Shown here: positions 15,538 through 36,790 of the stretch, piece by piece
How the letters are laid out: each line of letters starts with the position of its first letter
Position numbering within the stretch: position 1 is the stretch's first letter
NCBI GenBank assembly: GCA_965178125.1
Contig: OZ237771.1
Coordinates: 124,001-188,000, forward strand
Source: Bilabrum cf. latius
Taxonomy: Eukaryota
DNA: 64,000 bases
Direction of reading: 5' to 3'
Translations under genes and position numbers: made by a program
Notes under the pieces: model-generated
The model's input: only the letters and a program-made list of their open reading frames with translations
Database searches by the model: none
What the model was told of the DNA's origin: nothing

Positions 15538-16020
15538 CCCCCCCCCCGTGTCGGCTATGCCTCGCACTAATAATTTGTTATCTATCGATAAATTATTATC
15601 TCAATATCACAAATTTCGCTCCGCTTCATTTGCTCTTGACAATTTCAGTAGAGATAAAAAGAAAGAAAATCAATAATAAGAATTATTAAATAGAGGAGAG
15701 GGAGGAGGGAGTGCATGTTTAGAATTAAAATATATTTTAGTATCAAAAAAAAAAAAATTATTAATAAATATATACATAGAGAGAGAGTTTCAAAAAAATT
15801 TCCGTACGAGGTTCTCCCTTTCCCTAAGTAAAAATCAGATAGTAAAAAGTGATAGTAGAGCTTAATAAGTAAAACAAAAAATAGAAAACATGGGGGAGTT
15901 ACAAACAAAAAGTGAAGACATCTACAATTTGGAATATTTCATTCAGGTTACTCACATGATGGTTAAGCGAAATTTGATATAAGAAATATATTAAATTTTG
16001 CGAGTATGTCATGTTTTAAT
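15538..16020 (+). repeat. Left terminal inverted repeat (483 bp)
   Basis: Reverse complement of 36308-36790. The same spurious 87-aa ORF appears at 15645-15908(-) and 36420-36683(+). Confidence 0.97.
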
Positions 16021-16085
16021 GTTTCTAGAATTTTAACTATTCTAAAAACACTTAAAGAATATTATATAATATATACTTATACAGT

Positions 16086-18038: not shown

Positions 18039-19040
18039 TTTTTTGAATTCCTTCCAATTATCAATTAAATTAGAAAAATCTTTTTCAATTTTCTTTTTAG
18101 GTTCTGAGGTCCAGTCTTTTTTATTTGGATAGTCTTTCCATTCAATTATATATTTATCACCCTTTTCTCCTCTAATTCGTAGAGGATAAAATTCGTCTTT
18201 TTCTCTTTTTATTGTTGTAGGTTTTAATTCGTCCCTTGTATATAAAGTATTTAATTCTCTAATATAATAAAATGGCGGTTTATCACTAAAGAACCTTATA
18301 CCGTCAATATTATAAACTTGTGGACTATATCTGATATCTCCTACTCTGAATTTATCGCCTAGTTTTTTCCCAGTAATTGGGTCAATAGGATACTCTAATT
18401 TAACTCTAACTGATGAATTTACATCTAATAATTTACAACCAGACTTAGGACATTTAACAGGTTTTAATGTAGTAAATTCTTGTAATAGATTCTTAACTTT
18501 TGGTTTTTTATCTCGTTTCCTATTCAGATATTGTATTAATGGTCTAACATTTGAAACCCATTCTTTATTTCGTTTGCCAGTAGATAGTTCTTTTTCAGTC
18601 ATTAACATATTTAAATATTTACCTAAACTTTGGTTAGCTCTTTCAACTACAGCCATCTATTGTTTTCTTCCTACTTTAGCAACATTTAATATAATAGCCT
18701 CAGATTCAACAAATTTTTTAAAATCCCCTTTGAATTCTGAACCACTATCTACAGTAAGTAAGGTAGGACTCTAAAGTATATTTCTTTTCAATATTTTTTT
18801 ATAAGCATCTCTAACAGTTGACGAATTTTTATTCTTGATAGGTTCAGCATCTATTAACCTAGTCCCAATATCAGCAAAAACTAATAAATATTTATTCTTT
18901 GTTGGGTCAGTAGGCAAAAATAATAAATCAGCTTGTTGTCTTTGAAATGGTTGAATAGGGTAATTATAACTTCCGTATTGTTTTTTCAATCTATTCGGTT
19001 CTACTAATTCATTATAGAGTTTAGATGGTTTAAAAGACAT
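18030..19040 (-). CDS. Retroviral-type (rve) DDE integrase with C-terminal chromodomain, about 336 aa (2 TAG)
   Basis: QQADLL, TVDSGSEFKG and GRKQ*MAVVERAN give the D-D-E triad only if TAG at 18771 and 18657 are read through. YIIEWKDYP..WTSEP chromodomain. Ends TGA. Confidence 0.92.
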
Positions 19041-19133
19041 TATATAATACAATACGAAAATTATTTACTCGTTGTTTTTGGAATAGTAAAAAATCTTAAA
19101 ACTACTTAAAGAAATTAGAATAATATAATATAT

Positions 19134-20996
19134 ATGCAGGATAAAATAAAGAAGAATATCAAGCTTTATAAAACTAAAAAGATAATGAATGGTAAGAATG
19201 TCAAAACCACAGCTCATCTAGTAGAAGGTAAAAAAGGATGGACCATAGAAGATATTAAAAAAGTAGGTAAACTGATATCTGAAAAGTATAAAGCAAATAA
19301 GAAAATATTAAATGTAACCCTTCAATTTAATGACATGTCAAAAGCTACAAGGTCAACGATGATATATGATAATTCGTTATATAGTGATTTAGTTACTGAT
19401 GATTGGGATTCTGTTAATGTTCCTACTCCTTACGACGGATACGATAATAACTTAACAGATGATCTAATGCCTATTAATGGATTTCAATATATTAGGTTTG
19501 ATGTGATAGAATATATTCCATAGAAAGGAGGAAACAGTAAAAAAAATGATTGTTTGTATTTCTGTTTACGGGATGCTTTCGGAGGTCGTGAATATTTACC
19601 TAAGTCTTGGAACGCAGGAAATAAGATAAGAAGACAGCTAAATCTACCTCAAAATTGTAAGATTGAAACAAAGCATTTATAGGCTATTTCAAACGCACTT
19701 AAAACTAATATCCATTTAACGGGTGATGTGGTAAATGTTTATACAGCAAATACTAAAACTCATAGAAATATACACTTAGAAATCAAAAATGAACATTATA
19801 CTTTAAAACCAACTCAAAAGTTTAATAAAAAGGTTCAATATAATAAATGTTTAAAAGTAGCACAAAAAAAGAATAAAACTATTTACTGCTACGATGGAAA
19901 AGAAATATCAGAAATTGACAAACTTAATAAATTTAGATATCATATTTGTAATTCTGAAGATGATATTAAAGAATTTTATAAAGAAAAAATAGAACTTTAG
20001 AAGAAAATGCAAAAAGCAGGAAAGAAACATAATATTTTTTATTGTGACCCTGTAGCTTATATGAACTATAACACCTTAACTTTATAGAATTTCAAGTATT
20101 ATTGTCAATCCTTTGATTATCCCGCAAATATTGACCCTTGCGAATTTAAATATATAGAACTTTCAACGAGTGGAGATATTTATTATTGTAAAAAAAGGAA
20201 TATCACACTTAAGAAAGCTTATAAATATGATATTAACAGCTTATATCCTTCATTAATGGCTAGTATATACTCAGTTTTTCCTATTGGTAAGCCAACTTAT
20301 CACATGATTAAAACATTACCTAATAAATTTTGTTCTTTTGGATTATATAAATGTAAGATAGAGCAAGGAAAAGCAGACCTAGAATTATTTAAAATTATTA
20401 GAAAAAATCATTTTTATTGGTATACTCATATTGACATTAACGATTTAACTAAATACGGTTTTAAATTTACACTTATTAAAGATGAAACAAATCATATATC
20501 TTATTCTGATGTTGTAAAGGGTTCTCATGTATTTGAGCCATTCGTTAATGCCCTTTATAAAGCTAAACAAGATAAAAGCGATGAAGCAATATCAGATAAT
20601 TTTAAGAGTATTCTTAATTTACTATGGGGAACTTTAAGCGAAAAGAGACTAAGAAGAGTTACAAGGAAGAACTTAGATAATATGGATATGTTCCCTGAGA
20701 TGGAGAATATAATTGAATTGAACGAGGATAAATTAATACATTTTGACACACAAAAACCATATTTTAATAATTGGGCTAGAATCAAACCATTTTTAAAAGC
20801 ATATTCAAGAAGAGCCATTTTAAAGGTCATCACTAAAAACGAATTATATAAGCATATTTATCACATTAGGGTAGATTCTCTAATTTCAGATATTCCTTTA
20901 GATATTCCCATTAGCAATAAATTAGGAGAGTGGAAAATAGAACATGAGGGAGAAATAGAAATAATTCATACAAATAAAGTTGTGCCCAAATATTGA
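19134..20996 (+). CDS. Protein-primed family B DNA polymerase, 620 aa (4 TAG)
   Basis: One frame with TAG at 19521, 19680, 19998 and 20085. Motif A YDINSLYP, motif B KSILNLLWG, motif C variant HIRVDS, KLGEWKIE. Ends TGA. Confidence 0.88.
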
Positions 20997-21037
20997 TAAT
21001 TCTAAAAACACTTAAAAAAAGAATATATATAAATAGT

Positions 21038-21328
21038 ATGCCTGATAGAAAAGAATATTTCAAAAAATACCGTAAAGAAAATAAAGAAAGATTAAAAGAA
21101 TTACATAATCAAAGTTATACATGTGAGATTTGCGGTAAAGAAGTAAAAAAATACAATAAAGCCAAACATGAGAAATCCATTATCCATCTACACAGTAAAG
21201 CCAAAAAATAGGGATTAACACCAGATGAAAAAACTAATTTAATTAAAGCTTATAAAAAAGTTATAGGTGGATTAACAAAACAAGTAGAAGAACAAACTCA
21301 AAATTTACAATTTGTTGAAGAGTTATAA
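21038..21328 (+). CDS. C2H2 zinc-finger protein, 96 aa (1 TAG)
   Basis: YTCEICG...KAKHEKSIIH. TAG at 21209, ends TAA. Confidence 0.75.
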
Positions 21329-21368
21329 TGTCCATAAATTATAAAAACATTCTAATATAATTATATAA

Positions 21369-21587
21369 ATGAAACTCATTGATATAATTAAGAATAGAAA
21401 GTCTTTATTAGAATCAAAAGAAAAACGCCTTAGAAAGAGAATCAAAGATATGAAAAACCACAAAAAGGAAATTAAGGAATTAAAACAAGAAATTAAATGT
21501 TTAGAGAAAATGAACAAACTAGAAAGAAAACTAAAATATTCAAATCTTCCCGTTGTTGTTGAAGCATCAGAAGAAAATAGCGAATGA
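21369..21587 (+). CDS. Small basic coiled-coil protein, 72 aa
   Basis: ATG to TGA ORF with TCTA motif 14 nt upstream. Confidence 0.6.
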   Translation: MKLIDIIKNRKSLLESKEKRLRKRIKDMKNHKKEIKELKQEIKCLEKMNKLERKLKYSNLPVVVEASEENSE

Positions 21588-21609
21588 TATTTTATTAATA
21601 TATATTATA

Positions 21610-22605
21610 ATGAACGCTAAAGATAAGAAACTATGGAAATTAGCCCAATCAATAGCAAATAAGAAATATGACAAGCCATCAGCTTATAAAAGCGGTTATA
21701 TTGTTAAAGTTTATAGGGATTTAGGAGGTGAATTCAAAGGGAAAAAACCAAAAGATGGATTGACTAGATGGTATTTAGAGTAGTGGAAAAATCAAAGGGG
21801 AGAAATTGGATACAAAAAGAAAGGCGATATATACAGACCAACTAAAAGAATAAACAAAAAAACACCTAAAACATTTGATGAACTAACTTTAAAGGAATTA
21901 ACTAACGCTCAACTAGAGAAACTATTAAAAGGTAGAGTTAAACAGTTCAAAGGTGGGAGCGTGTGGGATGTTATTAAAGATATACCAGTTGGAGCATTTC
22001 GCTTTTTAACCAGAAGAAATAAGAAACTAAGCGATTTAACAAATGAAGTAAAAACATACGCTAAAATAGCTCAGCAAACATACGGAAAAGTGCCACAAAG
22101 GGATATTATTGACGGGTATAGATTATTATTCAAAGATGATCGGAGAAAAGTATACATTAAAGGAAATAATATAATTATTGGTGTTCGTGGAACGTCAGAC
22201 GGTAACGATGTATTAGATGATGTTAAAATTGCAAGAGGAACATTAGAAGAAAGCGAGAACTTTAAGAATTTAGTTGATATTTACGAGGCGATAAAATAGG
22301 CTTTTCCAGATGCTAATATTTCTTTTTCTTCTCATTCCTTAGGTGGTGCTATGGTTGCTTATTTAACAAAAAAATACGGCGACAAGATTAAAGGACATTC
22401 TTTTAATCCTGCTTTAAATTTTGAAATGATCAGAGACCCTAAATTTAATATCAAAAATATAAAATAGCATGTAATAGATGGTGACCCAGTAGCTCATAGC
22501 TTAGCCCAGTTTATGAATCCTGAACAAGTGACATTTTATGAATCGCCCCATGAAAAGAATAACTACTTTAATACTCATAAACTCAGCAATTTTACTGAAG
22601 ACTAA
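21610..22605 (+). CDS. Class-3-like lipase (alpha/beta hydrolase) fused to an N-terminal basic viral domain, 331 aa (3 TAG)
   Basis: IIIGVRGT, SHSLGG nucleophile elbow, FNP, GDPV and C-terminal His. N-terminal KPSAYKSGYIVK..GLTRW block. TAG at 21781, 22297 and 22465; ends TAA. Confidence 0.85.
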
Positions 22606-22650
22606 AATACTTATATGTTTATATTCCACAACATGTAAGTATATATTTAA

Positions 22651-23484
22651 TTATTGTATTTGTTGCAGCCTTTGTTTTCGCAGTTTTTCCTTATTCTTTT
22701 CATAATACCGTTTATTTTGCTCTTTTACTTTGTCTTTATTCTTTTCATAATACCGTTTATTTTGCTCTTTTACTTTGTCTTTATTCTTTTTCCGATATTC
22801 TTTATCATATGCTTTTTGTCGTGCTTTTATTCTTTCCTTGTTTTTTTCACGATAGGCTTTTCGCTTTTCTTTATTTTTTGCACGATACATTTTATCATAT
22901 GCCTTTTTTTTGTCAATATTTTTCATGCGGGTTTCTCTATACTTCTCACACACAAAACAACGGCATGAGCCGGAACGGCCACTGCCGCGCTGCCCCGCCC
23001 CCTTCCCTAAGGAAGGAGACGAGGGAATGCCTCGCAAGCTGCTGGTCGCACTGGCGGTTGCAACCTCGCGTTGGTAGACCGGAGCCTGTGTTCGAGTCTC
23101 GAACGCATCGCCACATCAACCCCGAACCCCATTCGGCGTTAGCATTAATTTTTCTTGACAAACCTTAACTGCTTCTTTTCTACTTCTACCAGCTACTAAC
23201 TTATTAACGCATGGATAATTCCTAATATAATGACCCTCAATCTGTCTTAGCTCTTCTTTATCGTTACATGGACATTTTGTCACTAATTCAATGATACAAT
23301 CGCCTAGTTCAACTATTTTATATGATGTCACATATGGACTTTTGCCGTTCTTGAATGTTTTATATGCCTTTATGTGTTGCCCTTTCCTCTTTGCTAACGA
23401 CTGTACGGTAGAACCATAATAATGAAGTTCGGGTTTATTCAATGAATATAATCTATAAATTTTTGCTTTGCTATAATCAGGCAT
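22651..23484 (-). CDS. GIY-YIG endonuclease with Lys/Tyr-rich tail, interrupted by a GC-rich insert of about 220 bp
   Basis: KIYRL...YYGST..LAKRKGQH...EGHYI..CVN. The tail (22651-22941) is in the same frame, but the insert carries an in-frame TGA at 23116. Confidence 0.8.
22942..23163. mobile_element. GC-rich structured insert 1 (boundaries +/-20 nt)
   Basis: GC-rich island in AT-rich viral DNA with several hairpins. Shares a 27/29-nt motif with the insert in the ATPase gene. Confidence 0.7.
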
Positions 23485-23541
23485 TCTTCGGATATATTCG
23501 GTTTTCTTTTTATTTCTTTATGTGATTTCAATGTTCATGCT

Positions 23542-24210
23542 TTAAAGAATTTTACCATAACCTAATCCACAACCTCTATCAATTATATCATCATCATCGT
23601 TTTTCACTATTTTTGGTTTATTAACTTTAGAACTAAAAAAAGAGTCGTCTATTTTTGGTTTATCTACTTTAGAGATTGGAAGTCTATCAATATTTTTATT
23701 GATTGAACCGTAAACGATATTTCTCACGGCTAAACTATCCAAATTTAGAATATCAAAAGTGTTTTTCTATTTCATGTTTACTGATTTAATATAAACTTTG
23801 TTATTTTGTAAACAATAGCAATAATCAGAAACGATAAAGCTTACATAATACATATCATCAGAATGTGAAGGGAAAAAGTAAACTAAATAATCTCTTAAAT
23901 CTCGCAATAATGAAGGGTGCTAATTAATCATTTCAATAAGTTCACTATCAGAATTTAAAAATAAGCTTAATTTTTCTTTCGTTATAGTTGGCTAAGGTTT
24001 TAATTCTTTATTCTTTGCTAATTTATTTAATAATGTTGATATGTGAATATAAGACAACCTAAATATTGTATATAATTCATTTACTTTTTTAATATATTTT
24101 ATGCCTTCCTTAAAGGTTAATTTATGCTTTTCAATTATGCTTTTTAATTGTTCTATTTCACCTTGAAACTGTTTCATTTTGTTTTGTAAATCTGAGAAAT
24201 CTAAATCCAT
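23542..24210 (-). CDS. Hypothetical viral protein, 222 aa (3 TAG)
   Basis: ORFs 23992-24210 and 23542-23742 join in one frame through TAGs and end TAA. Confidence 0.7.
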
Positions 24211-24314
24211 ATACTTTTATACTAGTTATAATTATTCAATATTTAAACTAAATATAAATTGTCAAAATTATTATGTCAAACCGATGGATTTGCTAACTAT
24301 TGAATTTTTTCTTA

Positions 24315-24770
24315 GAACTTTCCGAGACATTTCCGAGAAATTTCCTTAGCGAACCTTCATGAACCTTACACAAAAATAATTTGTTCCCTGACCCTACGAT
24401 TTCCGTTGATATGGGAGAGTTTCATATTTTGTTCCCTGAGGAACAACCTTCACCAGTGAACCTTTGAAACCTTCACCAGTGAACCTTTGAAACCTTCACC
24501 AGTGAACCTTTGCAACCTTCACCAGTGAACCTTTGAAACCTTCACCAGTGAACCTTTGAAACCTTCACCAGTGAACCTTTGCAACCTTCACCTGTGAACC
24601 TTTGCAACCTTCACCTGTGAACCTTTGCAACCTTCACCTGTGAACCTCAACGAACTTTTAGTTTATGGTCTTAAAACCTCACTCAACTGATTTTTAGCGT
24701 TGGGTCAGAGAACAACTTTTCCAAGAACTTTCCGAGAACTTTCCGAGAACTTTCCGAGAACTTTCCGAGA
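24315..24770. repeat. Internal non-coding repeat region: about 9 x 23-bp units flanked by 11-bp repeats
   Basis: AACCTTCACC(A/T)GTGAACCTTTG(A/C) at 24445-24647. GAACTTTCCGA-type units at about 24315-24345 and 24725-24770. Confidence 0.9.
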
Positions 24771-24776
24771 AAATAT

Positions 24777-25094
24777 TTAGAACCTAATATTTAGTTTCTT
24801 TTCATAATCTTTTATTGATGCTTCTAAAGTTGGTTTATTCCATAGTATCTACCATGATAAAATAGCAGGTGATAAGAAATCATATTTAGCTCTTTGAAAA
24901 CTGTATTCGTGACGCTTTAACCAATTCTTCTTTTTTGTTTCATCTTGGTGATCGATGAATGTTGAACCATTCTATAAACCGAAATGTACTTTCTTGATTA
25001 CGGGGTCATACTTCTTATATTTTATTTTAAAAGTAGCCATTAATCTTTTATTTTTCCTTGTTGATGGTTTTATACTTAATAGAGTAATGTTCAT
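24777..25094 (-). CDS. Small conserved-type viral protein (HFG...DH...RH...ILW), 105 aa (2 TAG); absent from the ORF track
   Basis: MNITLLSIKPSTRKNKRLMATF...KKVHFGL*NGSTFIDHQDETKKKNWLKRH...LSPAILSW*ILWNKPTLEASIKDY, ending TAA. Confidence 0.75.
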
Positions 25095-25151
25095 ATATAT
25101 ATTTAATGTATATATTAACAATTAATAATATCCTCTACTTTCAATCAAAAA

Positions 25152-25829
25152 TTAAAATCCTTGTTTCTTAAGGAATTTACTAGCATCACCTAATGACATG
25201 CCCGTTTTTTTCATAACTTGTTTAATCATTTCCCCTCTTTGTTTCATCTTAGCGGATACTTTACGCTTTGGTTTCTTTCCTGCTTTTGTTTTCTTACCCA
25301 TACCTTTTGTAGCTTTCTTTAGTCCGTAATTACTTACTTGTCTGACTCCAGGTGGTAGGAAGGAAGTTCCAACATCAATTAAAGCATTTTTAGAGGCTTT
25401 CTTAGCATTATATTTACGGTGGTGTTGTAAAGCATCTAATCCTTCCTCACCAAAAGCCCCAACATAGGGAATTTGTGAAACTCCAACTTTTCCGAGTTCA
25501 TAAAGTAAATCTTCAGAATCCATATTTTTTAGGTCTCTTACTCCTTTCTTTACTGTATCTCCTAGCTTATTAACGCCTCTCTTTACTGAATTACCAACAT
25601 TGTTGGCGGCTTTTCTTACCCATTTCCAAAATGACCCTCCGTGAATTCTTTGCATTTTTTCACATTCACAGCATACTTTTCTTGCGTCTCCTCTACCCAT
25701 TCCGAATAATTCAACTACTGCATCAACATGGTCTTCATTCATACTTCTTGGTTTTCTTGATGCTTTCCTTTTAGAGCGTGATTTTCCTGAACCGATTAAA
25801 TCTAAATATTCGTTTACCGTATATTTCAT
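25152..25829 (-). CDS. Lys-rich putative virion core protein with GG|SFW motif, 225 aa
   Basis: Intact ORF with TTTTCTA upstream. Basic termini; HGGSFWKWVRKAANNVG amphipathic segment. Confidence 0.75.
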   Translation of the reverse strand: MKYTVNEYLDLIGSGKSRSKRKASRKPRSMNEDHVDAVVELFGMGRGDARKVCCECEKMQRIHGGSFWKWVRKAANNVGNSVKRGVNKLGDTVKKGVRDLKNMDSEDLLYELGKVGVSQIPYVGAFGEEGLDALQHHRKYNAKKASKNALIDVGTSFLPPGVRQVSNYGLKKATKGMGKKTKAGKKPKRKVSAKMKQRGEMIKQVMKKTGMSLGDASKFLKKQGF

Positions 25830-25859
25830 AATAACTTATATTTAGAAAAAAAAAATCTC

Positions 25860-26447
25860 TTATAATGAACTATGAACCTCAATAATTGCGTAATTGGATC
25901 GTGTGGGTGTACCGCCTCCACCATTTCCATAATAAATATCTAAGTTGTTCTCAGCTCCTACCATTAATCTAACCGCTTTATATCCATGACCTGCATTTAA
26001 TTTATGTAGTAAAGTTAAGGTGATACCTTCTTTTATTTCTAATACATTCCAAACATATGGTAAATTTGATGATGTATCCCATGAATCATCTTCATTTTGA
26101 AATTGTAGTCCTATTCCTGCCGATCGTGTGCCTGATGTATTTATATTATGAACTGTTAAAGTAGCTTTAACTACTACATTATACTATGTATCAACTGGCA
26201 TATTATATGTTCCTCCTGCTGTTGAAAATATAGTATCAGCATCTGCGAAAGTAGATACATCTGTAAAAGTTGCGGGTTGTGGAATAACTATACTTTCAGT
26301 TCCACTAGAAGACTAAACAAAATCAAAACTATTGAAAGACAGGTTATTTCCTTGTTGCTGTAAGTTAACGGCATTGATAGTTGTTGCTGTTACTGATTTC
26401 GCTTTAAGGTCTAAATCATTTGTTGATAAAAGATTTGATATACTCAT
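25860..26447 (-). CDS. Short fibre/spike-like protein, 195 aa (2 TAG); absent from the ORF track
   Basis: Begins MSISNLLSTNDLDLK, nearly identical to the N-terminus of the 514-aa fibre. Beta-rich C-terminus; ends TAA. Confidence 0.75.
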
Positions 26448-26482
26448 TAATAATCTTATACTAGAAAATAATTTATATACTT

Positions 26483-28027
26483 TTATACTTCAACAACACA
26501 CATCCACCCGACACTATTTTGAACACCTGACATAATATGCCTTTTTACTGAGACCTTTGAAAACTTCCATAATTGGGAAGGATATCCATCAGATGTAATT
26601 GTGTAAGAATTTCTTAATCTATTTGGATTATTTGAACCTGGGAAATATATCAATGATTCAGGTACGGTAAAAGTGTCATCTGTATAAGTTTCTAGCGTTA
26701 TTGTACAAGTCGCATTTTGTCCAATATATGTATTTCCTATAGCTTTTAAGCAAATATTAAAATCATGATCGGACCACTCTTTACTAATTCTTAATGTATA
26801 ATTGGCACTTACTGGTAAGCCTCCGCTATCTCCTTGAGCAATACACATCAAGTTATAATTAAACGGTATATTATCAGATTTTAATATATCAATGGTTGAA
26901 CTGTTTTCACGAAATACATTTTTATCATATATTATGGGTGTAGTTGGTATACTATCAACATAGTTCTTAGTTGCTACATCTTGGGCATTAGTTGGGTCAG
27001 TTACATTGATAATCTTGCTATTATTCGCATCATTACCCTAACTTAAGACTGAGGATAAAGAAGGTGTTACTGTTGGTATACTATCAACATAGTTTTTAGT
27101 TGCTACATCTTGGGCATTAGTTGGGTCATTTACATTACTTATTGTATTAGAACTCATATTTACATCAACTTTAACATCCATACTATTATTATTTGCTGTT
27201 ATTATGTTTGTTTCTGTTGTATTATCAACATGATCGACTTTCAAATTAGTAGAATCTACGGAAAAATTATATCTAATATCTTGATTTGAATAATCATATA
27301 TACTCATTCCGTCATAACCTATTGCTAATCCCTAAACCCCGTTATCTGCTCTATATAATACGCTACCTCTTTCACCGCCTGAGTCCCATCTAGTCGTAAT
27401 ACCTGCAGTAAATGAATTTTTACCTGTATAATGAAAATTTCCACCTGTTGATGACCCTTCAAAAACCAATATACGCCCTTCAACTGGTTTAATAATTCCG
27501 TTATAATTTGCTACTGTTCCCACTTGTAAACTTTCAGCTTCCAATTCATTAGATGTTATCTTTCCTGTAACTGTTAAATTTGAGAATTCATCCATATTTA
27601 ACATTTCTACTCTTGTACCTAATCCGTAATTTTCTCTATAAATTCTAAAAAGACTATCTTCATTATCATTACTCAGAGAATAACCTAAATTGTTATTATT
27701 TGGTTGGAATAATCTAATTTGTCGTTCATCATCTGCTCTAATATATGATGTTGTTGTATGACCTCCAATTGTAACATTTCCCGTCGTTGTTATTGTATCT
27801 GATTCTAAATTACTTAACCCTACTATTTGCTCATTTCTTGCATCATCTCCTGCTTGTAATACTGACTGTAAATCTCCCGTTCCTGTTGCTTGAGCGTCTA
27901 CATATGCTTTAGTTGTTAACTGATTTGTATCTGTTATATTTGTTTCTGTTACTAATACTTTCTCTGTTGACATTGATCGACATTTTAAATCTAATTCATT
28001 AGTTGATAATAAATTTGATATGCTCAT
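26483..28027 (-). CDS. Fibre-like protein, 514 aa (2 TAG)
   Basis: Three ORFs in one frame. Duplicated DPTNAQDVATKNYVD plus QLTTKAYVD trimeric-fibre-type motifs. Ends TAA. Confidence 0.8.
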
Positions 28028-28094
28028 TTATAAAGTAAGTTTAGAAAATTTAATTTATTAATGAATTATATTTATTAGTTATTCCAATGTATTA

Positions 28095-29534
28095 TTAACC
28101 GTCAACATCTTCCTCTTCTTGTTCTTGTTCAGCCTATCGTGCTCGTTCTTCTGCTTCTCTTCGCCTTCTTGCCTATTCTACTAAATCTGCTCTTTCCTCT
28201 GGCGTTGGGTTTAAATCTACACTTTCTAGTTCATCCATGCCATCAGTAACACCATCTAGCATCTCTTCTGTTTTCCCCCTAAGAACCTTAAGACGATCCA
28301 TAACCCCTTTAAATGCTTCTCTCTTTTTTGCTCTATCTTTAGTATCTCTAAATTGTCTTAATTTTCCCTCTAGTTCCCTTATCTCTTTCCATTTTGGTCT
28401 ATTTTGCTTAGATAGTTTTAAAACTTTATCCAAATCACTTATAGGTGATTTAGCCACATATTTATTCCATTCTTTCTTTAGTTCTTCTTTATCCATTCCG
28501 TTTATATCATTCCATGTAAGACTCTATTCTTTTCTTTCGTCATCATTTAACAAAAACTTAAGGAAATCGTTCAACTGACCTTTCATCTCTCCTATTTTAT
28601 CTCCAACATTAAAATCATCTTCAATTCTGGGAAGTTTATACATATCGCGGATATCTTCATGTTCAATAAAATCACCAACTAGGAACTCTATCATATTCTA
28701 TTTATTATCAAGAATCTCATCCCAATCGGGGGCGTCAAAACCTCTTTCTTTATCTCGTTTCGTAAACTGTGCCTTTTGAGAAGATGAAAAGTATTCATCA
28801 AGAATCTCATCTTCAGATAAAGATCCGAGCGTTTCTCTTAATTCTTCAACCATGGACCAAATTTCATCCGCTGATGTATTTTCCGCCTGAAGGAAAGTTT
28901 CAATTTTTTTCCCGCTTAAATTTGCTTTAATCGTTTCCTTAATTTTTCTTATTGGCGTTCCTTCTTTTAATTTATATAATATTCTAAACTCTTCTAAATC
29001 AGAAGGTGAAAAGTCATCTACTCTTGATTTGCCTACTGATTGTAAAAGCTATTTAAATTGTTCATTATTCGTTACTTTATTTGAGGCTAATCCGTCTACT
29101 GTTCTTATTAATCTTGTAATTTTATTTTTTTCTTCTTTTTTGAGTGCTGTTTCTCCTATTCTTCCCGTCAATTGATTTAAAAAACCTTTTAGCATTCCTA
29201 TCATTCCTAAACTTGGATTTTCCTTTAAAATAATTTCTCTCATTCTTTCTAAGTTAGCATTTATCTTAGATTCACTTCCTGCGTTGAGACCTTCAACTAA
29301 TTCAGCGACAACTGTTCTCAATGCTCCATCCATACGCTATTCTCTTCTTCTTAGTTCTAAAGGTTGGAAATCAGTTGATAATACAATATCATCGCGACGT
29401 TTCTAATCTCTGAGTGCGTTTAATATAGCAAGTCGTTCGTTTCTTTCCCTTAATGCTAAATTTTCTACTCCTGAATTTACTGCTTGACGCTATTGATTCT
29501 ATTGCCTTAATATATTCCTAAGTTCCGTAGACAT
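28095..29534 (-). CDS. Charged helical/coiled-coil viral protein, 479 aa (9 TAG)
   Basis: Continuous frame from ATG 29534 to TAA 28095, interrupted only by TAG. TCTA motif upstream. Confidence 0.75.
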
Positions 29535-29576
29535 ATAATAATTTATGAATAGAAAAAAAATATTGTCTTTTATTAT

Positions 29577-30425
29577 ATGGAAATTAATAATAGAACCATT
29601 AAATTATTTAATAATGACCACTCTGCATTATTTCGTGAGCTTATGTTAATTAAAGATGTTGATTTATTACTAAATGGCTCTTTTCCTATTACCTTCTTCG
29701 CCTCAGATATTGACCTATATTCTAAATTACAAATGAGAGATTATAAAACATTGCTTAATGAATTGTTAAGTTTTCTTTTAGATGTTGAACTTGGAACGGA
29801 AATATCAGAATTAAAGATTGGTAATAAGAAAGCAAAAAGTAAAAAAGCTATTATAGAGTTAGTAGTTAATGAAATGAAAAACCCTAAATATATTTATGAG
29901 GATAAAAAGTGGGTTAAATTGGACCTTATAGTATTAATTAATGGATATTATGAAGAAATTACTATTATATATGATTTTGGCGATTCATTAGAAGGTAAAA
30001 CTAAAGATGAAGTTACCAAAGAACTTATTAAAGATGTTCATAAACTAGATAAACAAGGTATGTATTATAAAGCATTGAAACGATTAAGAGAAATATATAA
30101 AAGAACTAATCTATTTGATAAAGTTGAATTAATGGAAAGTTTGCTTAATAATGATATGGTGGGATTTTTATATTTATCTAATGCTAGATTGGAAGCATTA
30201 CAAAAATCAAAAGATAAAGTCAAGAAAAAGAACGATGTTTTAAGCAATCTTAAAGAGGATGTTATGATCAGATTAAAAAATATATTTAAACTCAATCTGA
30301 AGAAATCAGACTTTAAAATTAAGAATATTGATAAAATTCAAAGAGAAATTATGAATAAGTTACATTCTTTAGTTATAAAAACAGCAAAAAATGAGATTGA
30401 ATATTTGCATCGTTTAAGTAAATAA
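29577..30425 (+). CDS. Putative Pol-beta-type nucleotidyltransferase-fold protein, 282 aa
   Basis: LNGS...ASDIDL and KLDLIV resemble the hGS..DxD..D signature. Lies immediately upstream of the ATPase. Confidence 0.6.
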   Translation: MEINNRTIKLFNNDHSALFRELMLIKDVDLLLNGSFPITFFASDIDLYSKLQMRDYKTLLNELLSFLLDVELGTEISELKIGNKKAKSKKAIIELVVNEMKNPKYIYEDKKWVKLDLIVLINGYYEEITIIYDFGDSLEGKTKDEVTKELIKDVHKLDKQGMYYKALKRLREIYKRTNLFDKVELMESLLNNDMVGFLYLSNARLEALQKSKDKVKKKNDVLSNLKEDVMIRLKNIFKLNLKKSDFKIKNIDKIQREIMNKLHSLVIKTAKNEIEYLHRLSK

Positions 30426-30503
30426 CAATAAATAATATTAGCTTGTTTACTTTTCAAAGTTGTAAAATTGAATAATATTTTCTTTTCATATATTAATATT
30501 AAA

Positions 30504-31897
30504 ATGCTATCTTATGATAATATAAATGACAGTATTCCAATCGCATATAGAAAATATAATTCTAATAATGCTCAATCAAAAAATAAAGTTTTATACATTG
30601 ACCAAAGTTTCCAAAGCAATGAGCTTAAACCAGAAGATATATCAGACGATAAATTAACGGCAATTTTTGGAACTCATGCATTAAGGTCATTAAAAGCTGA
30701 TGCCAGAGTGTACGCGCAACCTAGTCTCGTTAACAATCAGACATGGCAAGACCTGACAAAGCTGTGCCTGTGCGCTACCCTTGACCGGACTGACCGGGGC
30801 TGGGAAGAGCACGTGCACTACTCCGCCGAGGAGGAGGGGGTTGGGAGGGTGGGCAAAAATTACCCAATCTCCGCCCCTCTCCTGAACACAGAGAGGGTAT
30901 GCGCGTCATCGCAAGCAATCCGTTGGCTTGGTCGCACCTTCCCGGTCGCAACCGCCATCGGAACGCAACGAGACGTTCACGCGCTCCCACTCTGGCATCA
31001 ACACCGAACCCCATCCGGCGTTAGGATCAAAAAAAGGAAAAAAGGAATAAATTAGTAGAATTATACAACGGAACAGAAGAAGCTGAAAAATTCAAGGATG
31101 TGGAAATTAAAGATAATTCAAACTTTAGAGTTATTCCTTATGCTTTAGGGCATACAAAAGATGATTCATATAATAGATTTGTTTTCTTTTTGAATGGAGC
31201 TAGTGGATCGGGTAAAAGTTACTTTTCTAAAGAGATTCTAGAAATGGGGCGAATGTTTGGCATTAAAAAAATATATGTTATTACTGATATCAAAGACCCT
31301 AAATTTGGAAAAGTCAAATACTTAGATATTAATACTTTAGTTGGTGAAAATGTCACACATGAAGAAAGTAAAAAGGAATATGAAAAAGCTAAAATTAAGT
31401 TCAAATACAAAAAGAAAATGTATAAAGATAACCCCGAAATGCTAATGAATTTAGAATTAGCACTGCACGATATGAAACCTGAAGCTAATACAACTACTAA
31501 ATTTGAGTTTAAATTAGATTAGGAGCAAAGAAATGCTATATTTTAGGATTCAATAGTATTATTCGATGATTACGAGAGTAATTCAGACATTGAAAAGATT
31601 GAGTTCTTAAGAGATAATCTATTAACTAAAGGAAGGCACACAAAAACATCGCTTATTATTTGTAATCATAAAGGCTCAGACGGTGGACATATGAAACTTA
31701 TTAAGATAGAAACGACGGATTATGTGCTATTTAATAAGTCAAATGACCACGAAAGAGCCTATCTTCTCAGGACTTATCTTGGATTTAACAAAGAATAGAT
31801 TAAAAGGGTAAAACTAGCATTAAAAAAATCTAGATGGATTTCTATAAACCCTAATGAAGGTTTTGCTATTAGTCAGAAAGAGACATTTATGATATAA
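30504..31897 (+). CDS. FtsK/HerA (A32-like) genome-packaging ATPase, interrupted by a GC-rich insert (3 TAG)
   Basis: Walker A NGASGSGKS, Walker B IVLFDD, TKGRH, IICNH, YLGFNKE*IKRVK; ends TAA. The 5' part (from 30504) is in a different frame because of the insert. Confidence 0.88.
30686..31044. mobile_element. GC-rich structured insert 2 (core 30699-31024)
   Basis: GC-rich island that frameshifts the ATPase. 13-bp inverted repeat TGATGCCAGAGTG (30698-30710) / CACTCTGGCATCA (30988-31000). Motifs shared with insert 1. Confidence 0.72.
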
Positions 31898-31919
31898 CTA
31901 TTTTCGAAACTATAATTAT

Positions 31920-32486
31920 ATGAATAGGGAAAAATTGAATAAATTAGTTAAAACATATTTAAGCCCCCAAGAATTAAAAGATTTATGGAACAAGCACCCG
32001 CACACAAAAGGTGACCCGCCTCGTGTTGTTTTGTATGATGATATCATTAAAGCCCCATCAATTGAAGCATTATTTCAAGGTGACAATAAATTAATTATCT
32101 TTTATCCCATGTCTCAACAAGGAAGTACGACAAGTGGACATTATACGGCATTAACTAAAGATGATAAAAAGAATGTTATTTACTTTTATGATTCTTACGG
32201 AGGGCTACCTGATGTAGGACAAAAAAAATACGCTAACTCAAATTTATACCAAGAACAAAATAATACCCTTATTAGACATTTACTAAATAGTGGTTATGAT
32301 GTTGATTATTCACCTTATAAACACCAAGGAGACGGAGATATCGCAACATGTGGAAGGCATAGCTTAAATAGAACTCATTTTAGCCAACTTTCAAACGATG
32401 AATATAATCAATTAATGAATGAAGCTAAAAAAGCAGTTAATGGTCATCATTCACTAGATGAAATAGTAAGTATGACATTCAATTAA
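31920..32486 (+). CDS. Adenain-like maturation cysteine protease, 188 aa
   Basis: SGHYTAL, YFYDSYG, HQ....ATCGRH give the His-Asp-(Gln)-Cys catalytic set. Ends TAA. Confidence 0.92.
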   Translation: MNREKLNKLVKTYLSPQELKDLWNKHPHTKGDPPRVVLYDDIIKAPSIEALFQGDNKLIIFYPMSQQGSTTSGHYTALTKDDKKNVIYFYDSYGGLPDVGQKKYANSNLYQEQNNTLIRHLLNSGYDVDYSPYKHQGDGDIATCGRHSLNRTHFSQLSNDEYNQLMNEAKKAVNGHHSLDEIVSMTFN

Positions 32487-32564
32487 TAAAATATTGTTAT
32501 GTATTAATAAACCTCAAATTTCTTATTTAAGGTATATTAACTTATATTAAAAATTCTTTTTTAT

Positions 32565-34361
32565 TTACATTTTATCTAAAAGTTTCTTAAGCTATGCTTT
32601 GCTCATTGCTTTACCTCCTTTTTTACCTGAACCAACTTCTAGCAATTCACCGCCTCTTTTCTTAGTTGCTTTCTTCTTCTTGTTTCCATAACCGAAGCTA
32701 TTCGCCAGATCGCCAAAAGGAGTGCCATCGGCTACGACAGGAGCAAGTCCTGAGTTTCTTAAGACTCTTGATGCAGTTCTTGCTTGTGGACTCTTGAGCA
32801 TATCACCGAGCCAAGTTAAACCAGACCATACACGGTTACCCATATCACCCCACCAAGAACCACCTACAATATGGTTATTTTGAGCGTTGTTCTTAGAGAA
32901 CATAACAGGAGACCTAGCAAGGACTTCACTTGAAAGTAAAGGTCAATCAGATTTATAAGTTCCATTATCTGACTCATTATATAATACAAGGTCATCGTAA
33001 TAAGCCATTACCTTAAGGGTATAAATTCCCCCCGCGTCTTGTCCTGCGGGGCAGTTCATAGTTGCTTTTACAGTAACAGTGAAGGTATGGTTTGCGTGAG
33101 AAATAAAGGATTGTTGAGATGCAGCGGGAACATCATCAGGTTTAATAATAATGAATGAACCAGCCCCAAATTGACCACTTGCTATCTATTGTTGGGCGAA
33201 TTTAGCATATCTTTCATTATATCCGTTCTTAGTAGACATTTCATAAAGTTGATGCTAACTATAATTATTGAAAATATCGGTTTTCTGTGCTGTGTCAATT
33301 GTGAGCTTTGATATATTTGCGTATTGATCAGATTCACTATAACTTTTACCATTAACAGCCTTATTTCTCTTAGCATAAATGAATAATGCGGTAGGAACGC
33401 TATCTAATACAAATGAACCACTTGAAACCGTTACGGGAACAGGTAGATAAGGATCAGCTCCGACGGTTAACTCAACACTTTTTGAAGCTTGTCTCTTTAA
33501 TTCTGGAGCATTCCATACAATCTATTTAGGAATATCTAAGTTTAGAGATGGATTCCATGTGTGCACTAAAAGATGGAATTCTGCGTCAGTACAAGCAACT
33601 GAGGTAGCATCCTAAACGTTAGCCTTATCAACAACTAGGAACTCGCCAACTTGTCCAACAATGGCATCCATATCAAACTCAGCCTTAAAATTTTTAAGAT
33701 TTCTAAAAGGAACGGGGTTCTCTTGTTGATATTGGAAAGGTTGAGCAAATACAGCCTCGCGATATACAAGCTCAATTGTAAAATCATCAGCCCCATTTTT
33801 TGTTATTTTCTTGATATCCCAGTTATTGCCTAAACCGTTAGATGATACAGTATCTATAGCATTGAATCCCTCTTTAAGGGAATTGTTGGCATAGGTACTA
33901 TCATAACTAGTTGAAAGTTGACCCGCGGGAGCATCAGACACACGCATAAGTTGGGCAAGTGGTTGAGTATTAGCCATAGCTTCGGCAATATCAGCGGGCC
34001 TAGAAGTGAATTCATGACCGTTTAACTCAACTCTAGCATTTGATAAGCGTCTATTTAGTGCTAACTATCTAATACCAATTTTACCGAAAAGATCAGAAAC
34101 ATCAGTTAAATTCTAAGTTCCAGTAAGTCTAAGGGTTAAACCTGCTTCTAACATTGGGGTGGATTCTACGTTTCCAAGTGGAAAGTTATACTGAAATCTT
34201 ACAGTTCCAGCTTCGCCATTTGATGGTTTAGATGCAGCGGGAATTCTTCGTCTTACTGATTCGTTATTGGACATTCTAGCCCCAAGCATTACATCCTCGG
34301 GCTTTTTAAACTTTTCGTTAGAGTTAGCTAATAGAACGGTGTTTTTATAGTAACTTGACAT
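32565..34361 (-). CDS. Virophage major capsid protein (double jelly-roll), about 598 codons (7 TAG, 1 in-frame TGA at 32943-32945)
   Basis: Single frame from ATG 34361 to TAA 32565. IR*LALNRRLSNARVELNG, EAVFAQPF, LDSVPTALFIYA, QLYEMSTKNG, GSFIIIKP. C-terminal GG motif and basic tail. Adjacent to penton and protease. Confidence 0.88.
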
Positions 34362-34403
34362 AATAAACTATATATAGAAAAAAATTTCTTATATATTTCT
34401 TTA

Positions 34404-35291
34404 TTATTCTCTCATAAAATATAATTTAATATCAATTTGAGAGTTAGAATTTAGAGCTATAGAGTGTCCCACATTATTATAATCATACCAAAAGAAATCT
34501 AAATAAAATGAATTTATATTTTTAGATTCTTTGAAGTTATGCCAAATATGGTCTTTATCTCTTGCACTATACTTAATTAAACTTATAGGCTAATTATTCG
34601 CTTGTTGAACGTCAAAATCTACCAAGAAAGTAGCCGTATCTTCACTTCCAGCGATTGCATCTGGTTGATTAAATGGAGGAGGTAAAAGTTCATTTTCAGT
34701 TGGAAGATTTGACTTTATAACTATTCTCGATACAGGACTCATTAGCTCTAAAGTTGCTACATATTGCGTCTCTTCGTCTTTATCAAGCTCAACATAGTAA
34801 GGACTAGATAATACAGATTCATAATTAAAAGTTGGCATATAAGTGAATAAATCGTCATTGAATCCAATTTTCCAAGCAGAACGAAAACCAACTGCAGAGT
34901 TAATAGTAAATTTATTAGTTGTCTCATCAAATGTCATAGTTGGAACATCCCCTATTGAAAGAGTTGTACATAATGTATCAAAAGTATTAGAAATAGCAGA
35001 TGCTACATCGTGATAATCGTAAATATATCCGTCGACGTCATCGTATGCGGAAAAATCCACCGTCTCTGATGTTACTACACCAGATGAAATATTTTGAAAT
35101 GAAATCGTAGGAGTATTTAATTTTGGATCAAATAAAGGTAAAAGAATCTTGTTCATAATTAATCGTTCTACTGAAATAAGCCAACCGCTAGTATCGCTTA
35201 TAACGTCTGACTATCTATTTATATTAACTCTAGCAAGAGATGATATTCCATTCACTCCATGCACCTATCCTGTTAAATATTTATGACTCAT
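34404..35291 (-). CDS. Minor capsid (penton) protein, 295 aa (3 TAG)
   Basis: Frame from ATG 35291 to TAA 34404. WLISVERL, SPVSRIVIKSNLPTENE, LDFFWYD...IKLYF. Directly upstream of the MCP. Confidence 0.82.
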
Positions 35292-35371
35292 AATACAACT
35301 TATATAGAAAAAAATATTAAAATAGTAACCATAAAAAACCAATAAATAAATAGTAAACATAGATAATAATT

Positions 35372-36292
35372 TTACTTTTTTTTTAGCAATAACTAAATAC
35401 TTATTATTTCCGTATTTGGATAATTGAGTTTATCAAAATCACAAGATAACACGAATATATTATCATTCTTTAGTAATAGTGAATTTAGTTGATTTATTCT
35501 TTTATTCTAATACATGTCTTTATTAGTAGGAATAAACAAAATGTAAGACTCTTTTTTTGATAATTCTATATCTAATAGAGATGATAAATCAATAATTGGA
35601 TAATCACTTACAAGTTTTAAATACTCGTTGTTTATTTCTTTACCTTCAATATTTGAAATAGAAAAATTACCTAATAATATATTTTTACAATTTTTTAATT
35701 CTAAGCTTTTACTATTCTATTTAATAACCTCAAGTAGTTTCTTTAGTTGATTGGTTCTAATATTTGTATTATCAATATATAATAAATCATCAGTTAGAGA
35801 ACATGTAAACATACTAAATACGTAGTTTTTTATTTTTATATTTGCTATTAGCACATGTTCATTGTGTATTATTGACTATGGATTAAATAAATCATAATAA
35901 CTATAATTTTCAAATGGATATGATGAGATTATTACTTTATCATATTTTTTATAATTTTTATCAACAGTTTCAGAATCCCAAGAAGTCTTTATATTTGAAG
36001 AATCAATAGATAATATACTATTTCCATCGTTTAACTCATCAAATGAAGGAACTATATGAAATCTCAAATCTTCTTTTTTATTTCTGATATTAAACTCTTT
36101 ATAAAATTCAATAATTGCTAATTTATGATTTAATCCCTCGAGTGATATAATTGCTTTAGGATATTTAAAAATTTCATCTAAAATTATTTCAATATTTTCG
36201 CTTAAACTGAATGATTTTGTTATATTCGTGGAAATATTGACTAATTTAATAGTGTTATCAGATGAAAATTGTTTAGTGAGTATACTCCCCAT
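35372..36292 (-). CDS. Hypothetical viral protein, about 306 aa (4 TAG), possibly a degenerate EEP fold
   Basis: Continuous frame except TAG, ending TAA. AIISLEG and ILLGNFS loosely resemble the EEP motifs DIxxLQE and ILxGDFN. Confidence 0.6.
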
Positions 36293-36307
36293 ATGTAATA
36301 TAACAAG

Positions 36308-36790
36308 ATTAAAACATGACATACTCGCAAAATTTAATATATTTCTTATATCAAATTTCGCTTAACCATCATGTGAGTAACCTGAATGAAATATTCCAAA
36401 TTGTAGATGTCTTCACTTTTTGTTTGTAACTCCCCCATGTTTTCTATTTTTTGTTTTACTTATTAAGCTCTACTATCACTTTTTACTATCTGATTTTTAC
36501 TTAGGGAAAGGGAGAACCTCGTACGGAAATTTTTTTGAAACTCTCTCTCTATGTATATATTTATTAATAATTTTTTTTTTTTTGATACTAAAATATATTT
36601 TAATTCTAAACATGCACTCCCTCCTCCCTCTCCTCTATTTAATAATTCTTATTATTGATTTTCTTTCTTTTTATCTCTACTGAAATTGTCAAGAGCAAAT
36701 GAAGCGGAGCGAAATTTGTGATATTGAGATAATAATTTATCGATAGATAACAAATTATTAGTGCGAGGCATAGCCGACACGGGGGGGGGG
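36308..36790 (-). repeat. Right terminal inverted repeat (483 bp)
   Basis: Reverse complement of 15538-16020, followed by AATCT. Confidence 0.97.

Follow-up and report, generated by a model that had tools for sequence, protein, structure and literature searches.

Two short, GC-rich insertions, designated A and B, interrupt an integrated mavirus-like virophage in the window, i.e., the whole 64,000-nt stretch of DNA analysed here, and they very probably (probability about 0.9) belong to a high-copy, non-coding, non-autonomous mobile family that came from the host nuclear genome. Both are recent insertions, because each has an insertion-free virophage allele that is otherwise identical. They break two genes: the GIY-YIG nuclease is truncated by A, and the packaging ATPase is frameshifted by B. 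The layout of the elements is best fitted by a non-autonomous, rolling-circle Helitron2/Helentron of the HINE-like kind, a tentative assignment held at slightly less than even odds. The features are collected in Table 1.

Without A and B, the virophage comprises 21.3 kb with 29.7% GC and is bounded by perfect terminal inverted repeats of 487 nt each (15537–16023 and 36305–36791). The capsid ORF (32946–34361, minus strand) matched PDB entries 6g43/6g45 with E = 6.5e-39 and 3j26 with E = 1.4e-5, and genes for a helicase, an rve integrase with a chromodomain, a lipase, a GIY-YIG protein and an A32-like ATPase could also be detected. TAG is a sense codon in the virophage and the host alike. A GC scan of the virophage revealed islands of at least 0.5, with a peak of about 0.7, at 22920–23159 and 30700–31049, which were the sole strong ones among the eight runs reported by the scan. 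The two related GC-rich insertions that the preliminary description had proposed were confirmed; the true ends lie slightly inside the coordinates given there.

These ends could be fixed using contigs from public runs that carry the same virophage without each insertion, a comparison which had been suggested earlier and which succeeded at both sites. For A, a 1518-nt contig of run X1 proceeded from 22947 through TTTAT to 23148 and was otherwise identical to the window (0 further differences across 187 + 1326 nt); run X1 may be the source of the window itself. Five nucleotides of the target (TTTAT) were replaced or lost at this site. For B, a 3629-nt contig of run X2 joined 30697 straight to 31030 with 0 differences in 3599 nt, and this empty site revealed no target-site duplication and no duplicated or ambiguous junction bases ('both' = 0). 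The alignment of an X6 contig breaks off exactly at the left end of B (30698), and at the right end further copies stopped at 31024 or 31029. The insertion-bearing junctions of A were spanned with 0 differences by two X2 contigs and the 3' junction of B, likewise with 0 differences, by an X1 contig, while a 202-nt unitig of run X6 (depth 1523) was identical to A over 22952–23147. B is flanked by C and A (T and G on the opposite strand), and A by C and the deleted TTTAT; both sites are AT-rich, as is the whole virophage. B begins with TG and finishes with ATCA, and A finishes with ATTA.

The two elements have opposite orientations relative to the virophage genes, as previously noted, with A antisense to the minus-strand GIY-YIG gene and B sense within the plus-strand packaging ATPase. 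The GIY-YIG frame enters A and ends at TGA 23116–23118, which gives a product of 122 aa; the Lys/Glu/Tyr-rich C-terminal part, from 22947 down to 22651, follows with its frame unchanged. The packaging ATPase scored 19.4 and 17.9 bits against Pox_A32, each under the 22.8 cut-off, and the presence of B shifts its frame ahead of the Walker A motif (about 31200).

Table 1. Positions of the virophage, the interrupted genes, the two elements and their internal features in the window.
Feature	Position	Strand	Remark
Integrated mavirus-like virophage	15537..36791	.	Context of A and B
GIY-YIG nuclease gene, broken by A	22651..23484	-	PF01541, 24.6 bits (cut-off 22.6)
Packaging ATPase gene, broken by B	30504..31897	+	Coding 30504-30697 and 31030-31897
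Element A	22948..23147	+	200 nt, without an ORF of its own
Element B	30698..31029	+	332 nt, apparently complete copy
Left inverted-repeat arm of B	30698..30731	+	First 13 nt (30698-30710) exact complement of 30988-31000
Right inverted-repeat arm of B	30967..31000	+	Subterminal, 29 nt from 3' end; exact 13-mer at 30988-31000
Purine-rich low-complexity tract	30828..30853	+	Middle of B
Collinear motif block of B, common to A	30872..30953	+	CGCCCC and hairpin, TCGCAAGC, GGTCGCAC, CGGTCGCAACC
Corresponding motif block of A	22996..23065	+	Same motifs as in B
CGCCCC	A 22996 / B 30872	+
TCGCAAGC	A 23032 / B 30909	+
GGTCGCAC	A 23044 / B 30930	+
CGGTYGCAACC	A 23055 / B 30943	+
29-nt terminal motif	A 23114-23142 / B 30996-31024	+
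Conserved right-end module of A	23114..23147	+	Hairpin CCGAA/TTCGG at 23122-23136, then 11 nt to end
Conserved right-end module of B	30996..31029	+	Weakened hairpin at 31004-31018, then 11 nt to end

Contig depth over A and B was tens to hundreds of times that of the virophage. In run X1 it was 17101–18385 at positions within B and 1020 within A, compared with 30–47 for virophage contigs, and in run X6 a unitig of the B core (30873–30994, 1 difference) had a depth of 1749.5. B-like copies were present in unrelated, non-virophage sequence in at least seven listed contigs of 600–11332 nt. In many variant B-like copies from the runs, 30727–30854 is exchanged or missing, the differences being mainly in the middle of the element. 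The GC content was 61.5% in A, 59.3% in B and 57.8% in the host flanks, against 29.7% in the virophage, and no protein match was found for A or B. The small, non-coding, non-autonomous mobile family envisaged in the preliminary description is upheld by the insertion-free alleles, the high depth and the B-like copies in unrelated contigs. Only A and B could be read at full length; the remaining copies are known from contig summary tables.

The chief likeness between A and B is the right end. The 29-nt terminal motif matched twice in the window against 0.00 expected, and two matches occurred in 0/100 shuffles; it extends by 5 nt into a 34-nt right end with 30/34 identical positions. Upstream of it, all the motifs listed in the preliminary description were present in both elements, in the same order and on the plus strand, and the local alignment of A and B scored 49, compared with 30.2 ± 5.1 for shuffles (49 or more in 5/1000). 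The 13-mer of B occurred only at 30698–30710 (+) and 30988–31000 (-), with pairing that extends to 34 nt at 74%. Its left arm begins at the very end set independently by the empty site, and its right arm forms the closing stem of the predicted B fold. No left inverted repeat was found in A, and the repeat is thus seen in one of the two copies.

Folding analysis gave z = -5.67 for B (0/100 shuffles as good) and z = -1.66 for A (14/200). As DNA, the 5-bp right-end hairpin had -4.7 kcal/mol in A and -2.9 kcal/mol in B, and shuffles were as good in 12/200 and 108/200 cases, respectively. The single difference between A and B within this hairpin was, in this two-sequence comparison, uncompensated and weakens the stem. 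The conserved fold suggested earlier was therefore not borne out by the z value of A and the uncompensated hairpin difference. The individual hairpins fared better in part: CCTTCC/GGAAGG of A and CCCTCTC/GAGAGGG of B were recovered in the minimum-energy folds, but the GTTCGAG-T-CTCGAAC palindrome occurs only in A.

Helitron2/Helentron-like elements were absent from the candidates of the preliminary description, and the architecture points to that class instead. In such a scheme, a rolling-circle Rep-helicase, whose gene would lie elsewhere in the host, would copy the element in the form of single-stranded DNA. Termination would be signalled by the conserved 34-nt right end and its small hairpin, and the 13-nt inverted repeat would act as a second recognition site; B would be a complete copy, and A would have the same right end with a different or missing left end. 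As described in PMC11417382, Helitron-like element 2 has 12–16-nt terminal inverted repeats with a stem-loop beyond the right repeat, and its left terminal sequences vary more than the right ones. HINEs, according to PMC4067079, have 12–15-bp subterminal repeats, of which the right one sits 38–60 bp from the end; they also carry microsatellites and a palindrome of 5–10 bp that lies 8–35 bp from the 3' end, and they leave the target site unmodified. The likeness of A and B to HINE/DINE-1 elements lies in the 13-nt repeat of B, left terminal and right subterminal, in a small putative palindrome beyond the right repeat, 11 nt short of the 3' terminus, in the missing target-site duplication, in the central low-complexity tract of B, in the better conservation of the right end compared to the left, and in a non-coding length of a few hundred nucleotides at high copy number. 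However, B lies between C and A and not at the T|T target in T-rich sequence of this class, its right repeat is 29 nt from the end instead of 38–60, the 3' hairpin of A and B is weak, A is without the left repeat, and TAG codes for an amino acid in the protist host. No Rep-helicase was found among the scanned ORFs of this window. A canonical Helitron (Helitron-like element 1, with 5' TC, a 3' hairpin plus CTRR and A/T insertion) was also considered, and the ends and flanks of A and B do not match it.

The main rival, which we consider unlikely, is a SINE-like non-LTR retroposon. Its RNA would be reverse-transcribed at a nick in the target, with priming on the conserved 34-nt 3' tail, which a partner LINE recognises. 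A would then be a 5'-truncated or shorter relative, and the long stem of B an RNA structure. Such an origin would suit the concentration of A–B likeness at the 3' end, as in SINEs with a LINE-shared 3' tail: two short, otherwise diverged families have only the 3' end in common, and one copy is without the 5' part. It would also suit the absence of the left end of B from A together with the 5-nt target deletion, the strong RNA fold of B, and an A-rich flank past the 3' end, seen in B and, with an agreement of only 0.58–0.63, in a consensus of further copies. However, a tRNA-like head, 7SL, 5S or any other Rfam match was absent (ARAGORN reported 0 tRNA genes, and Rfam gave 0 matches at the gathering score over the whole window), so that A and B differ from such SINEs in having no polymerase III head; they likewise have no poly-A or simple-repeat tail, and B has no target-site duplication. 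Further, an exact 13-nt inverted repeat from the first base is unexpected in a SINE, and the depth in X1 and X6 showed no increase in the 3' direction along B, by what is a crude measure. An introner, in which B would be spliced from the ATPase message (GT 30708 to AG 31024, 317 nt) leaving 15 in-frame nt, is decidedly improbable. Its removal restores a stop-free ATPase frame, and host introns appear to start with GT, as the frames of a hisG-like gene suggest, which breaks after 41229 and continues with GTGCGG. Such rescue is cheap, however: 4 of 8 GT/AG pairs around the termini of B achieve it, as do several on the antisense strand of A, and such pairs are too easily found by chance to bear out the earlier introner proposal. 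A is antisense and without a GT near its plus-strand start, and most host genes of the window are unbroken multi-kb ORFs. Transcription of virophage genes normally takes place in the giant-virus factory in the cytoplasm, at a distance from the spliceosome, which also counts against splicing. In favour of introners, about 25% of the polinton-like and giant-virus elements integrated in dinoflagellates contain them (PMC12166617).

A derivative of an RNA-guided or ribozyme-bearing element, with either a guide scaffold of the IS607/Fanzor type or a self-cleaving RNA and with its conserved right end next to variable flank, is highly improbable; both ideas had been raised before. The variable flank directly after the conserved end and the strong structure of B agree with it, neither being class-specific. 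However, Rfam gave no ribozyme or other family for A or B at E <= 10 apart from four chance-level rows (E = 1.4–7.5) of miRNA and lncRNA models, no TnpB-, Fanzor- or recombinase-like ORF was present among 40 scanned translations from the window, each of at least 64 residues, and A folds no better than shuffles. An ordinary cut-and-paste MITE, a repair-associated capture of non-mobile host DNA and a chimeric assembly are scarcely credible, and these readings are largely refuted by the run contigs. The inverted repeats of B and the host-like GC would be compatible with a MITE or with capture, but the right repeat ends 29 nt short of the terminus and target-site duplication is absent, which speaks against a MITE; the common 34-nt end on both units and the many recurrences make random capture unlikely. 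The chimera, which the preliminary description had named as a refutation of its proposal, is opposed by junctions spanned by contigs of separate runs. It is also conceivable, if improbable, that A and B represent an unclassified structure-bearing superfamily, neither canonical Helitron, SINE nor MITE. Its sole shared cis-requirement would be the 34-nt right end, and it would prefer AT-rich provirophage DNA in a GC-rich, TAG-reading protist and could ride virophage particles between cells.

The insertion of transposons into integrated virophages has already been described, and the phenomenon is not new. In the endogenous mavirus-like elements of Cafeteria, as described by Hackl et al. 2021 (PMC8547959), GC-rich host-type Ngaro transposons likewise break AT-rich integrated virophages and were first noticed as GC spikes, as here. 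Ngaro elements are, however, autonomous tyrosine-recombinase retrotransposons of about 6 kb with split direct repeats, whereas A and B are non-coding units of 200–332 nt, with an inverted repeat in B. Similarly, the dinoflagellate introners described by Gozashti and Corbett-Detig 2025 (PMC12166617) are small non-autonomous host transposons that secondarily entered integrated viral elements with double-stranded DNA, some of which bear ATPase and GIY-YIG genes, as here. In contrast to these, the splicing of A and B is a candidate only, B has no target-site duplication, and the hosts differ in lineage and in genetic code.

The integrated virophage is thus being colonised now by a small host transposon, with insertions that are polymorphic between otherwise identical virophage copies. 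Among endogenous virophage-like viruses, the Ngaro elements of Cafeteria and the dinoflagellate introners were recorded earlier, and the present family adds a third kind of transposon. Should the Helitron2-like assignment be true, A and B would represent this class in compact form in a protist whose genetic code is altered; if the separate superfamily is true, the virophage would be a vector for transposon spread. The disruption of the packaging ATPase bears on how long provirophages can reactivate and protect their host from giant viruses.

The AT-rich insert at 15537–36791 was 21.3 kb long with 29.7% GC content when the two GC-rich insertions, A and B, were left out, and it was bounded by perfect inverted repeats of 487 nt. 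The host DNA of the window had 57.8% GC. Residues 19–470 of the product of ORF 32946–34361(-) matched the PDB 6g43/6g45 capsid chains (E = 6.5e-39), which we take to be from mavirus, and more weakly 'capsid protein V20' of PDB 3j26 (E = 1.4e-5), presumably from Sputnik. On its sequence, the insert is a genuine virophage. A search for capsid relatives in viral_contigs gave eight pattern matches, none of which could be confirmed. One copy of a host repeat (15035–15536 and 36792–38036) holds the virophage in its interior. A second copy at 1816–3542, 81–92% identical, is unbroken at the equivalent point (about 2325–2344) and represents a paralogous empty site. As the bases bordering the two virophage repeat ends are AATC and ATCT, any target duplication produced by the virophage would be 3–4 nt at most.

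An 80-nt GC scan of the insert revealed eight runs of at least 0.5, among which only 22920–23159 and 30700–31049 reached about 0.7. All the motifs listed for these two segments in the preliminary description were present in the order and orientation claimed, and its 29-nt terminal motif occurred twice in the window, compared to 0.00 expected occurrences. This motif could be extended to a 34-nt right-end tail with 30 identities between A and B. Local alignment of the parts upstream of the tail revealed a collinear motif block with a score of 49, compared to 30.2 ± 5.1 for shuffled sequences (5 of 1000 shuffles were equal). Because BLAST of A against B detected the tail as the sole significant match and the motif block emerged from the upstream alignment, the two elements are related, chiefly through their right ends. 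Besides A and B, the window contained no further copies.

The ends of the elements could be determined from X1, X2, X6, and X7, four of eight public sequencing runs for 22500–31500; all four are contig sets with longest contigs of 18–275 kb and thus represent DNA. A 1518-nt contig of X1 matched 22761–22947 and 23148–24473 with no differences, and carried TTTAT in place of 200 nt of the window. A 3629-nt contig of X2 matched 27099–30697 with no differences and then continued directly at 31030. A diverged relative in X1 was also without B and showed 28 different letters between 30689 and 31050. These insertion-free contigs place A at 22948–23147 and B at 30698–31029, which upholds the insertions of the preliminary description with refined ends. 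B had no target-site duplication, and five target bases were lost at A. At these sites, X2 had A present and B absent, while X1 included one allele without A; contigs also crossed the filled junctions (records 8 and 9 of X2 and record 6 of X1). A and B are insertion polymorphisms between otherwise identical virophage copies. The empty forms are DNA alleles and not spliced RNA, since the A-empty form has five other letters and the B-empty contig spans genes on both strands. In one low-depth X2 contig, the virophage stopped at 27143 and was followed by 29 nt from the start of a B-type element (30698). A different virophage allele may carry a third B-type insertion there; the 29-nt side falls below the reliability limit, and the joint is not counted as evidence.

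Contig depth in X1 was 17101–18385 in B and 1020 in A, compared to 30–47 for the virophage. Coverage by X6 was seen in 5 of 30 bins, essentially A and B, from which nothing is concluded for the other bins; it included a 202-nt unitig (depth 1523) identical to 22952–23147 in A and a 122-nt unitig (depth 1749.5) with one difference over 30873–30994 in B. At least seven contigs of 600–11332 nt from X1, X2, X6, and X7 carried a B-like copy of approximately 85–90% identity inside non-virophage sequence. In other copies the alignment broke off at 30698 (left end) and at 31024 or 31029 (right end), and the middle of B was skipped or replaced in many variants, for example from 30727 to 30854. X1 is possibly the source of the window itself and does not count as independent support, and X2, X6, and X7 are other samples. 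Given their GC content of 61.5% (A) and 59.3% (B), A and B are host repeats that invaded the virophage, not virophage sequence. The mobile non-autonomous family proposed earlier was thus borne out by the empty-site alleles, the high contig depth, and the B-like copies elsewhere; the specific candidates named for it found no support. Exact-pattern scans of viral_contigs with a 21-nt tail, a 24-nt B core, and a 25-nt A stretch gave no match each. The sole match to the 21-nt tail pattern in metagenome_contigs (L001:1653–1673) was judged to be chance because the contig is uniformly 57–67% GC and shows no similarity outside the pattern. When the open frame through B was used as a protein query, two candidates and no significant match were obtained among the proteins of 60–193 aa searched.

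Assessment of the architecture of B revealed that its first 13 nt recur as an exact reverse complement at 30988–31000, with no other occurrence in the window. Extended to 34 nt, the two arms pair at 74% and form the closing stem of a highly stable structure (-141.6 kcal/mol, z = -5.67; none of 100 shuffles was as good). The left arm begins at base one of B, as placed by the insertion-free contig, and the right arm stops 29 nt before the 3' end. These last 29 nt are the conserved tail, consisting of a 5-bp hairpin (31004–31018) followed by 11 nt. Element A contains the motif block, the same tail, and a strong hairpin on its 5' side, equalled by 1 of 200 shuffles; a left inverted repeat was sought in A and none was found. 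The whole of A folded no better than its shuffles (z = -1.66). When A was folded jointly with the 3' half of B, the consensus reached -14.1 kcal/mol and both partners differed in 6 of 23 pairs, in a comparison of two sequences only. The tail hairpin is marginal, and an internal T/C difference weakens its stem in B with no compensation; for these reasons the tail is conserved as sequence, and a site recognised by a protein would explain this no less well than an RNA fold.

Coordinates of features within A and B, in the virophage, and in the host flanks
Feature	Position	Strand	Remarks
Purine-rich tract	30828–30853	+	middle of B
Shared motif block	30872–30953	+	B; includes three copies of a TCGCA-like word
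Palindrome	23090–23104	+	A's own
TAG read-through examples	32943–34361 (capsid gene); 16086–18038; 8033–13798; 54362–59698; 60209–64000		virophage 15537–36791 and host flanks
Virophage Pfam content			DUF5906 helicase; rve integrase and chromodomain; DUF5872 lipase-like; GIY-YIG nuclease; weak A32-type packaging ATPase

Both insertions interrupt virophage genes. A lies antisense within the GIY-YIG gene, whose frame enters A and ends at TGA 23116–23118 after 122 residues. The Lys/Glu/Tyr-rich C-terminal part is thereby severed; it stays in the same frame, since the net gain is 195 nt. B is sense-oriented in the packaging ATPase gene, between codons of a Lys-rich linker; its length of 332 nt, not divisible by three, throws the Walker A motif (near 31200) out of frame. 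The B-bearing copy would be incapable of making the packaging ATPase unless B is spliced. The Lys/Glu/Tyr-rich repeats of the GIY-YIG C-terminal part, 22651–22947(-), belong to DNA repeat family D11. Near the same gene, the minus-strand region 24296–24790 contains tandem repeats of 23 nt and 11 nt (families D4 and D13).

Regarding the transposon class, Helitron-like element 2 is described as inserting between T and T and as having left terminal sequences more diverse than the right ones (PMC11417382). Its non-autonomous forms HINE and DINE-1 are described with subterminal repeats of 12–15 bp, a palindrome of 5–10 bp lying 8–35 bp before the 3' end, a T-rich target that is left unmodified, and, in a part of the copies, microsatellites (PMC4067079); rolling-circle elements can also form tandem arrays (PMC12001565). 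B resembles HINE in repeat length, in having no duplication, and in its central low-complexity tract, and a candidate hairpin follows its right repeat in the order and at the distance described for HINE. However, B departs from the T|T rule, its hairpin is weak, and its right repeat lies nearer to the end than in mite families. No Rep-helicase was found among the ORFs scanned within the window. By analogy, the A/B family may work most like HINE, at a probability of roughly 45%, and is not filed as a proven member. A SINE-like retroposon could account for the shared 3' end together with the missing left part of A, as well as for the few target bases lost and for the A-rich sequence that follows the 3' end in several copies. 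Such an origin is less likely, as the SINE features tested failed (there was no head, no tail repeat, and no duplication) and the terminal inverted repeat is not predicted by it. A tRNA/tmRNA scan also found none.

A cut-and-paste MITE does not fit the subterminal right repeat and the missing duplication. The ribozyme suggested in the preliminary description could not be sustained: Rfam gave no match in the whole window at the gathering score and chance-level rows only for A and B at E ≤ 10, so that known ribozymes and RNA families are excluded as far as Rfam covers them. A guide-RNA scaffold of the IS607/Fanzor type may be a remote candidate; no TnpB-, Fanzor-, or recombinase-like ORF emerged among the 40 ORF translations of at least 64 residues scanned in the window. 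An introner is possible in principle, as removal of GT 30708 to AG 31024 would leave 15 in-frame nt in a host that appears to have introns. Spliceosomal-type introns of several hundred nt are indicated in the host because a hisG-like gene (41212–41860) is split with a frame change: its first coding piece ends after 41229, followed by GTGCGG, and the Pfam-like body restarts near 41832–41870 in a different frame. The majority of the window's ORFs nevertheless run unbroken. Against an introner, half of the GT/AG pairs nearby likewise restore the frame, so frame restoration is too permissive to serve as evidence. Expression of virophage genes also normally takes place outside the nucleus.

Comparable insertions are known. 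GC-rich transposons interrupting AT-rich endogenous mavirus-like virophages have already been described in Cafeteria (PMC8547959). In dinoflagellates, roughly 25% of the polinton-like and giant-virus elements that have integrated harbour small intron-generating transposons, most of which arrived through secondary insertion (PMC12166617). A and B are a further instance of this phenomenon, as a new family in a different host and possibly a different transposon class.

Under the standard code, the virophage genes consisted of same-frame pieces parted by nothing but TAG. Six in-frame TAGs lie in the capsid gene, which ends at TGA, and the alignment of its product with PDB 6g43 passes through all six, end to end. 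Translation with TAG as sense yielded 24 ORFs (≥100 aa) that tile the virophage. Host ORFs of 1117–1921 codons contained 4–9 TAGs each, including one TAG within a Pfam AAA domain. In the 6g43 capsid chain, the TAG positions aligned to S, T, Q, and A; in AAA ATPases, the aligned position was ambiguous. Judging from these reading frames, TAG is a sense codon in both virophage and host. A literature search, with the listed papers judged by title or abstract, found none evidently concerned with a virophage in which TAG is reassigned.

Host tandem arrays could be observed at 347–1759 (53-nt unit, at least 22 times), 5394–6545 (258 nt, 5 times), and 8434–9081 (54 nt, about 9–12 times), the last coding for a repeated Gly/Pro/Gln-rich peptide within a 1921-codon AAA-protein ORF. 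The 9-mer GTGACGAGT had 21 exact copies between 42575 and 59503, compared to 0.22 expected, a count that none of 100 shuffles reached; they occupied both strands and host DNA only (for example at 55217, 56492, 56510, 59393, and 59408). One 1778-codon ORF contains thirteen of them in frame (Val-Thr-Ser), some paired 6–9 nt apart, and the remainder, scattered through host coding sequence, include some in unrelated ORFs. As the identity holds at the DNA level, the 9-mer suggests a propagated three-codon insert or footprint. The TAG reassignment and the scattered 9-mer may merit more attention than the finding of A and B.
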